Made by a program: the position numbers and the translations under genes. The notes below the pieces were generated by a model. It worked only from the letters and a program-made list of their open reading frames with translations, was not told the origin of the DNA and did not search any database. Below are positions 11,197 to 11,992 of a stretch of DNA of 64,000 bases, piece by piece. The stretch lies in the NCBI RefSeq assembly GCF_003334815.1, contig NZ_QOWO01000006.1; one strand, given 5' to 3'. Position 1 is the first letter of the stretch; each line of letters begins with the position of its first letter. Source of the stretch: Escherichia coli. Its GTDB lineage: Bacteria; Pseudomonadota; Gammaproteobacteria; Enterobacterales; Enterobacteriaceae.

Positions 11197-11290
11197 TGTA
11201 CCGACCGGGCAGTGTTGCTGCCCGGTTCAAACATCATGGGATTCTGTGGTAAACTTCTCGCGATTTTGTGAAATCCTGGTTGAGGTATCT

Positions 11291-11992
11291 CTGAACACAC
11301 CGGCACAGCTCTCTTTGCCACTTTATCTTCCTGACGACGAAACCTTTGCAAGTTTCTGGCCGGGGGATAACTCCTCTTTACTGGCCGCGCTGCAAAACGT
11401 GCTGCGTCAGGAACATAGCGGTTACATCTATCTCTGGGCACGCGAAGGCGCGGGGCGCAGCCATCTGCTGCACGCGGCTTGCGCGGAATTGTCGCAGCGT
11501 GGCGATGCGGTGGGCTATGTCCCGCTGGATAAACGCACCTGGTTTGTTCCGGAAGTGCTCGACGGTATGGAGCATTTGTCGCTGGTCTGTATCGACAACA
11601 TTGAGTGTATTGCAGGCGATGAGTTGTGGGAGATGGCGATTTTCGATCTCTACAATCGAATTCTGGAATCGGGCAAAACACGGTTGTTGATCACCGGCGA
11701 TCGTCCACCGCGGCAGTTGAATCTGGGATTACCGGATCTCGCGTCGCGACTCGACTGGGGGCAGATCTACAAATTGCAGCCACTTTCTGATGAAGATAAG
11801 TTGCAGGCGCTACAGTTACGCGCGCGTTTGCGTGGTTTTGAACTGCCGGAAGATGTGGGGCGTTTCTTGCTGAAGCGGCTCGACAGAGAAATGCGCACGC
11901 TATTTATGACGTTGGATCAGTTGGATCGTGCGTCGATTACCGCGCAACGTAAGCTGACCATTCCGTTTGTGAAAGAAATTCTGAAGTTGTAG
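11291..11992 (+). CDS. hda: DnaA-inactivating protein Hda (RIDA); non-canonical CUG start
   Basis: Track ORF starts at GTG 11246, but the known 233-aa Hda begins (M)[18 protein letters not shown]; CTG at 11291-11293 is followed by AAC ACA CCG GCA CAG and preceded by GAGG at 11282-11285. Confidence 0.85.

Follow-up and report, generated by a model that had tools for sequence, protein, structure and literature searches.

The hda gene is a classic example of a CTG start in Escherichia coli, and this start is said to have been described by Su'etsugu et al. in the Journal of Biological Chemistry in 2008. EcoGene 3.0 (PMC3531124), through which we quote Su'etsugu 2008 at second hand, reports a CTG start with an experimental N-terminus for hda, and it was the only relevant source on hda and CTG or CUG among the full texts accessible to our search. 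Known since 2008 and present in the reference annotation, the start itself is not new.

Like hda, yfjD lies on the E. coli chromosome and has a true CTG start that was once mis-annotated at a canonical codon; its CTG was predicted from conservation and inspection of the ribosome binding site and was confirmed by start-codon mutagenesis (EcoGene 3.0, PMC3531124). In yfjD, however, the wrong call (TTG codon 9) is located downstream of the CTG, whereas in hda it is located upstream, and the two proteins are unrelated. Another system that resembles hda is infC, which encodes IF3, starts with AUU and likewise combines a conserved non-canonical start with a dosage-sensitive gene. IF3 represses its own AUU start in a demonstrated feedback loop. 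This loop is a property of infC, whereas for hda it is a low efficiency of initiation that we infer. As a general statement, IF3 discriminates against non-canonical start codons (Hecht et al.). The earlier note had called CUG initiation rare in E. coli, which agrees with EcoGene, where the first confirmed case is hda and the second yfjD, and with an initiation efficiency of CUG in E. coli of 1-2% of that of AUG, i.e. a roughly 50-100 times weaker start (Hecht et al.). Hda proteins from outside the Enterobacterales, such as those of Shewanella amazonensis (PDB 3bos) and of a Ferrimonas-like genome, have the same domain architecture with a QLxL clamp motif near the start.

Here we analysed a 64,000-nt stretch of E. 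coli DNA, referred to as the window. Its hda gene corresponds to that of E. coli K-12 (b2496; EcoGene/U00096.3) in locus, in the start that is claimed and in the coordinates of the coding sequence, as the MG1655 CDS, complement(2618075..2618776), encoding NP_416991.2, equals window positions 11291-11992 (MG1655 position = 2630067 minus window position). The gene order in the window is upp-uraA-hda-arsC(yfgD)-bepA, and the window is identical to MG1655 over the start region and the 75 nt upstream of the Shine-Dalgarno (SD) sequence. A 951-nt query around the start site matched all 5,426 complete E. coli genomes, the top matches being 100% identical. A 61-mer around the start is found exactly in 5,395 of 5,427 E. 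coli records, and polymorphism within the species is uninformative; an apparent indel in H21 proved to be a SNP only.

According to the list of open reading frames the longest hda ORF comprises 11246..11992 on the + strand and codes for 248 aa, beginning with GTG. The CTG at 11291-11293 is in frame with this GTG (11246-11248), 15 codons downstream of it, and the GAGG at 11282-11285 occupies positions -9 to -6 relative to the C of CTG 11291, all as the earlier note had described. The predicted duplex with the anti-SD tail of the 16S rRNA amounts to -6.9 kcal/mol upstream of CTG 11291, the strongest among the candidate starts, and to -4.0 kcal/mol upstream of GTG 11246; the in-frame near-cognate codons in between, ATC 11273 and CTG 11276, lack an SD, with values of about zero (+0.3 kcal/mol). 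Read in frame, the GAGGT of the SD gives the residues 'EV' of over-extended protein calls. The RNA structure of the predicted leader and start region (11262-11330) was not significant (-10 kcal/mol, z = 0.6), and on this ground a riboswitch-like leader or structural occlusion of the start was rejected. A search with Rfam upstream of hda gave no match. The coordinates of all features are listed in Table 1.

Table 1. Features of the hda start region, in window coordinates.
Feature	Position	Strand	Remarks
Hairpin after the uraA stop (CCGGGCAG-TGTTG-CTGCCCGG)	11205..11225	+	No T-run; weak terminator or 3' stabiliser
Putative -35-like hexamer TTCAAA	11226..11231	+	4/6 match; 18 nt upstream of the -10 hexamer
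GTG opening the longest ORF	11246..11248	+	Not used for initiation; contributes the TG of the extended -10-like element
15-codon 'extension'	11246..11290	+	Non-coding leader and promoter DNA, untranslated; flat conservation, indels, stops
Putative extended -10 element of hda, TGgTAAACT	11247..11255	+	TG-n-TA...T in 88/88 species
Shine-Dalgarno sequence GAGGT	11282..11286	+	GAGG core 5 nt before the CTG; -6.9 kcal/mol duplex
hda CTG initiation codon	11291..11293	+	Read as fMet; first codon of the 233-aa protein
hda coding sequence	11291..11992	+	233 codons and TAG stop; NF005982, PDB 5x06, 88 colinear orthologues
Clamp-binding motif QLSLPL, codons 6-11	11306..11323	+	Has to lie 3' of the true start

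The protein was identified as Hda by the NCBIfam equivalog model NF005982 'DnaA inactivator Hda' (476.6 bits, cut-off 268) as well as by TIGR03420 (281.4 bits, cut-off 194.8). The Hda chain of PDB 5x06 aligns starting exactly at the CTG-encoded residue, as MNTPAQ, and every aligned residue of chain E (residues 21-253) after the start codon is identical (E = 8e-157). Numbered from the CTG, the clamp-binding motif QLSLPL comprises residues 6-11 and has the N-terminal position that characterises Hda, in line with the numbering 6-QLSLPL-11 in the report on the Hda-clamp crystal structure (PMC5397184). Across a set of 136 full-length proteins, each representing a cluster at 50% identity, the called start typically precedes the motif's Q by 1-8 residues (mode 3). 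Five residues precede it in the 233-aa form, which fits the family, and 20 in the 248-aa form.

Initiation at the CTG is also supported by published ribosome profiling. The supplement of the tetracycline-inhibited ribosome profiling study (TetRP) lists hda as 2616097..2616843 in the 2006 GenBank record versus 2616097..2616798 in 2014, a shift of 45 nt, and this re-annotation of the start falls between U00096.2 and U00096.3. hda is among the 27 re-annotated genes that the automatic caller of TetRP missed, and manual inspection assigned it to class '3. 2014', i.e. signal at the CTG site. By its description this class comprises genes with reads exclusively at the 2014 (CTG) site, and hda is not among the genes classed as 'multiple'. 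The initiation-arrest profiling that the earlier note had proposed as a check is thus already published as TetRP, and its manual score favours the CTG site. In the searched part of the 2026 N-terminomics tables (TRAINSPOTTER) we found substring matches only and no entry for Hda.

We compared hda and its flanks from 80 Enterobacteriaceae species and from eight species of other Enterobacterales families (Yersinia, Erwinia, Serratia, Morganella, Hafnia, Pantoea, Photorhabdus, and Dickeya), the 88 species representing at least six families of the order; per-base conservation was taken from an alignment of 81 Enterobacteriaceae sequences. All 88 orthologues are colinear for 233 codons counted from the CTG, and in each of them the start codon is CTG, with TTG, ATG, or GTG never being seen at this position. 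Codon 1 is the sole column with a single codon among the 131 columns in which a degenerate amino acid (i.e. other than Met or Trp) is invariant in the 88 species. The other 24 invariant Leu columns contain three to six Leu codons each (CTG, TTG, CTC, CTT, CTA, TTA), TTG being present in 21 of them. As CTG is invariant at codon 1 while the other Leu columns mix codons, the constraint acts on the nucleotides and not on leucine. GAGGT is located at -9 to -5 in 86 of the 88 species and is shifted by 1-2 nt in the remaining two, and every one of its bases is 100% conserved in the 81-sequence alignment. The occurrence of CTG in all 88 species together with the conserved GAGGT shows that this start arrangement is not due to chance.

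The conservation profile changes at the same codon. For codons 2-21 conservation is periodic (0.94/0.99/0.80 for the three codon positions), whereas over the 45 nt of the extension (11246-11290) it is flat (0.81/0.80/0.82), so that codon periodicity sets in at the CTG. In 47 of the 88 species no ATG, GTG, or TTG occurs in frame in the interval from the CTG back to the nearest preceding stop, and in many genera such a stop already precedes the CTG by 4-6 codons. Downstream, none of the 88 species has a canonical in-frame start before codon 7; the first one is mostly TTG codon 9 or GTG codon 37, and use of such a start would truncate or remove the clamp-binding motif. The locus exhibits sequence features by which a near-cognate start is judged, namely an SD at functional spacing, a nucleotide constraint beyond what the amino acid needs, and no canonical alternative that would keep the N-terminus. 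In the two nearest loci retrieved from outside the Enterobacterales the called start is a canonical GTG, in contrast to the CTG of the Enterobacterales, and the CTG start thus appears to be an Enterobacterales-specific trait at the level of the order.

The claim of the earlier note that CTG 11291 rather than GTG 11246 is the start of hda is accordingly borne out, with EcoGene 3.0, the curated annotation, TetRP and the 88-species comparison all in agreement. The CTG start is shown by literature, ribosome profiling, annotation, and comparative genomics, and it is likewise shown that the extension is non-coding, so that we regard it as nearly certain that translation of hda begins at CTG 11291 and that the 15 codons from GTG 11246 onwards are untranslated. 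For the start site as such this merely confirms curation at textbook level. What the comparison adds to the knowledge of K-12 is that CTG and SD are fixed across the order Enterobacterales, that the GTG overlaps a -10-like element, and that start calls in relatives disagree with one another.

The long ORF of E. coli can be traced to the sequence around the GTG. In the 81-sequence alignment T11247 and G11248 do not vary (100% conservation); they belong to TG-n-TAAACT and form, together with TAAACT at 11250-11255, the clearest of the invariant blocks upstream of the SD. The xTG triplet homologous to GTG 11246 is out of the hda frame in 76 of the 88 species and in frame and open in only 11. Indels that shift the frame occur within the extension, such as a base added after 11274 in 63 of the 81 sequences, and the putative SD of the GTG, GGGA at -8 to -5, is weak and unconserved (0.30-0.54). 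With the GTG-equivalent out of frame in 76/88 species, the 248-codon ORF of E. coli is an accident of a spacing difference of 1 nt. The misleading ORF is thereby explained, as the promoter-like TG-n-TAAACT supplies the GTG and a 1-nt difference in length brings it into frame in E. coli.

TG-n-TA...T is present at -48 to -42 in all 88 species, and its background frequency across the window is 0.0004 per position. The hexamer is TAAACT in 74 species, TAGACT in 10, TACACT in two, TAAGCT in one, and TAGTAT in one, so that only T1, A2, and T6 are fixed and variation is confined to positions 3-5. This pattern is as expected of a sigma-70 extended -10 element, and the TG at 11247-11248 stands one base before a hexamer that keeps T1, A2, and T6. 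The -10-like element is kept in Serratia, where an alanine racemase gene replaces uraA upstream, and in Morganella and Photorhabdus despite otherwise unrelated upstream sequence. In the -35-like hexamer T11226, T11227, and C11228 are 99-100% conserved, and a 'GTTCA' block is found at the same distance in Serratia, Morganella, and Photorhabdus; the hexamer overlaps the tail of the uraA hairpin, and its conservation has two possible causes. A generic promoter and terminator scan of 11100-11400 called nothing, the site reaching 8/12 (4/6 + 4/6) against a threshold of 9/12. This miss lowers our confidence in the promoter but does not remove it, as extended -10 promoters typically tolerate a poor -35. 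Judged from sequence and conservation, we consider it probable, albeit with some reservation, that TGgTAAACT at 11247-11255 is the extended -10 promoter element of hda itself. If TG-n-TAAACT is the promoter, GTG 11246 may lie upstream of the transcript start.

Just 3' of the -10-like hexamer the alignment contains a further conserved block, 'CG-n-TTTT' (11256-11267), with C11261 conserved at 96%, G11262, T11264, and T11265 at 100%, and T11266 at 91%. This block may represent the transcription start site (TSS) and the initial transcribed region, or a binding site.

In the searched tables of Cappable-seq, ROSE, Romero 2014, and Kim 2012 no TSS was found near MG1655 2618804-05 (U00096.2 2616826-27); since hda is weakly expressed, this absence carries no information. 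Kim et al. 2012 assigned to hda a TSS with two reads inside uraA at window position ~10626 (+) (U00096.2 2617463, minus strand), 620 nt upstream of the old hda start. If this TSS is real, there would be an hda mRNA with a long leader that contains the GTG. The arms of the uraA hairpin are conserved and its loop is variable, and it was not called as an intrinsic terminator. As it lacks a T-run, read-through mRNAs containing the GTG are likely, and absence of the GTG from the mRNA is not established.

Such transcripts are the basis for dual initiation, in which translation would mostly start at CTG 11291 and a minor 248-aa isoform would arise from GTG 11246 on uraA read-through mRNA. mRNAs that contain the GTG are plausible, since the upstream hairpin falls short of a canonical terminator and a weak TSS within uraA has been assigned to hda. 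As a start codon GTG is by nature much stronger than CTG, the weak GGGA at -8 to -5 provides a duplex of -4.0 kcal/mol, and several E. coli genes do use two starts (TetRP). Nevertheless, we rate this isoform as very unlikely, since TetRP places hda in the class with reads at the 2014 site only and not in 'multiple', the putative SD of the GTG is unconserved, and the 15 additional residues would shift the clamp-binding motif away from the near-N-terminal position typical of the family. Moreover, the extension shows no sign of being constrained as coding sequence, and 76/88 species have the GTG-equivalent in another frame, so that any 248-aa isoform would be an E. coli-specific by-product without conserved function. 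That GTG 11246 is the real and only start, giving a 248-aa Hda, is a reading to which we attach practically no weight. It is a canonical codon, opens the longest ORF, was the start in the 2006 GenBank annotation and is still chosen by ab initio callers, but stops or frame shifts part the GTG position from hda in most relatives, the annotation was revised on experimental grounds, and the TetRP signal is at the CTG, so that this reading is effectively refuted already.

Equally negligible is a start downstream of the CTG, at TTG 11315 (codon 9), which would yield a 225-aa protein as in some annotations of Klebsiella and Serratia. TTG is a canonical start, K. pneumoniae KPN_02819 is annotated with 678 nt (Kim 2012), and several 225-aa calls begin with MPLYLPDDE. 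However, codon 9 is TTG in only 44 of the 88 species and CTG, TTA, or CTA elsewhere, no SD precedes it (duplex of -1.7 kcal/mol), and residues 2-8, which such a protein would lack, are conserved with coding periodicity; the TTG start is already contradicted by this conservation.

For initiation at CTG 11291 we propose the following course. The GAGGT, 5 nt upstream, positions the 30S subunit at the CTG, and the initiator tRNA decodes the near-cognate CUG as fMet, resulting in a 233-aa Hda with the clamp-binding motif from residue 6 onwards. GTG 11246 and the next 15 codons are untranslated leader and promoter DNA, open in frame in E. coli only by virtue of the 1-nt difference in length from most relatives. 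The GTG itself most probably lies inside the extended -10 element, and transcripts would start near 11262-11263 and hence lack the GTG.

The weakness of the CTG may itself be selected, keeping Hda scarce. Hda is present at about 100 molecules per cell. TTG, ATG, and GTG are stronger starts and each is one step away, yet none has replaced the CTG in the species compared, which argues for selection of weak initiation. The fixed weak start would then be evidence of such selection in a dosage-sensitive replication regulator. The proposal of the earlier note that the CTG sets low Hda levels is therefore plausible and reasonable, as CUG is 50-100 times weaker and no stronger one-step alternative occurs in the order. 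Data on Hda abundance, on over-expression, or on a CTG-to-ATG swap were not found in the reviews and papers accessible to search. A further possibility, which we regard as rather unlikely, is that the CTG is a regulatory device, with rejection of the CUG by IF3 tying Hda synthesis to the ratio of IF3 to ribosomes. If so, the capacity for inactivation of DnaA-ATP (RIDA) would be coupled to the translational state and the growth rate, similar to the AUU of infC, and annotations of 235 aa starting at a GTG would, like the NCBIfam model with 235 positions, be systematically two codons too long.

The earlier note expected that automated pipelines would probably mis-annotate this locus; this expectation holds only in part. 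It does not apply to RefSeq/PGAP for E. coli, where the identical, correct 233-aa protein WP_001307333.1 is given in all E. coli records opened (three besides MG1655), but it does apply to ab initio callers, which give 248 aa, and to many relatives (225-272 aa). The 248-aa form makes up a cluster of 3,510 Logan/ENA sequences. In relatives the calls have lengths of 233, 235, 238, 241, 243, 244, 248, 258, and 272 aa, and for Morganella alone RefSeq and GenBank contain proteins of 233, 238, 243, and 249 aa. Truncated calls of 221-225 aa lose the clamp-binding motif.

Calls of 235 aa, a frequent form, take as their start the GTG in GAG-GTG-CTT-CTG; this codon lies inside the SD, without spacing. 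This GTG is found ~6 nt upstream of the CTG in Yersinia, Erwinia, Hafnia, and Dickeya. The equivalog NF005982 also has 235 positions, the first of them two residues before the CTG, and this model is used across Yersiniaceae, Erwiniaceae, Hafniaceae, and Pectobacteriaceae. Since CTG and SD are invariant, the 235-aa calls are probably two codons too long. Annotations of 225 aa with MPLYLPDDE as first residues, corresponding to TTG codon 9, were observed in Klebsiella (KPN_02819), Serratia, and Pantoea. Calls of this length, in which most of the clamp-binding motif is gone, are almost certainly too short. The Hda start calls in many relatives, and the family model that propagates them, are thus probably off, with calls of 235, 238, 241, 243, and 248 aa among the over-long ones.

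The same trap of the longest ORF is seen in uraA, whose longest ORF starts at TTG 9865 and comprises 443 aa, whereas RefSeq gives 1,290 nt and 429 aa from ATG 9907.

A GTDB representative labelled E. coli SCPM-O-B-8794 carries an extra C ('gaaatcCctggtt') in the region homologous to 11270-11280, which restores the spacing of most other genera and thereby puts the GTG out of frame. As this variant is absent from the 5,426 complete RefSeq E. coli genomes, the genome probably belongs to a divergent Escherichia lineage.

Finally, the region between hda and arsC/yfgD (11993-12134) contains palindromic repeats of the REP/BIME type (GCCGGATG.../...CATCCGGC), which match Rfam naRNA4 on both strands below threshold, with 28-31 bits versus a gathering score of 59.5.
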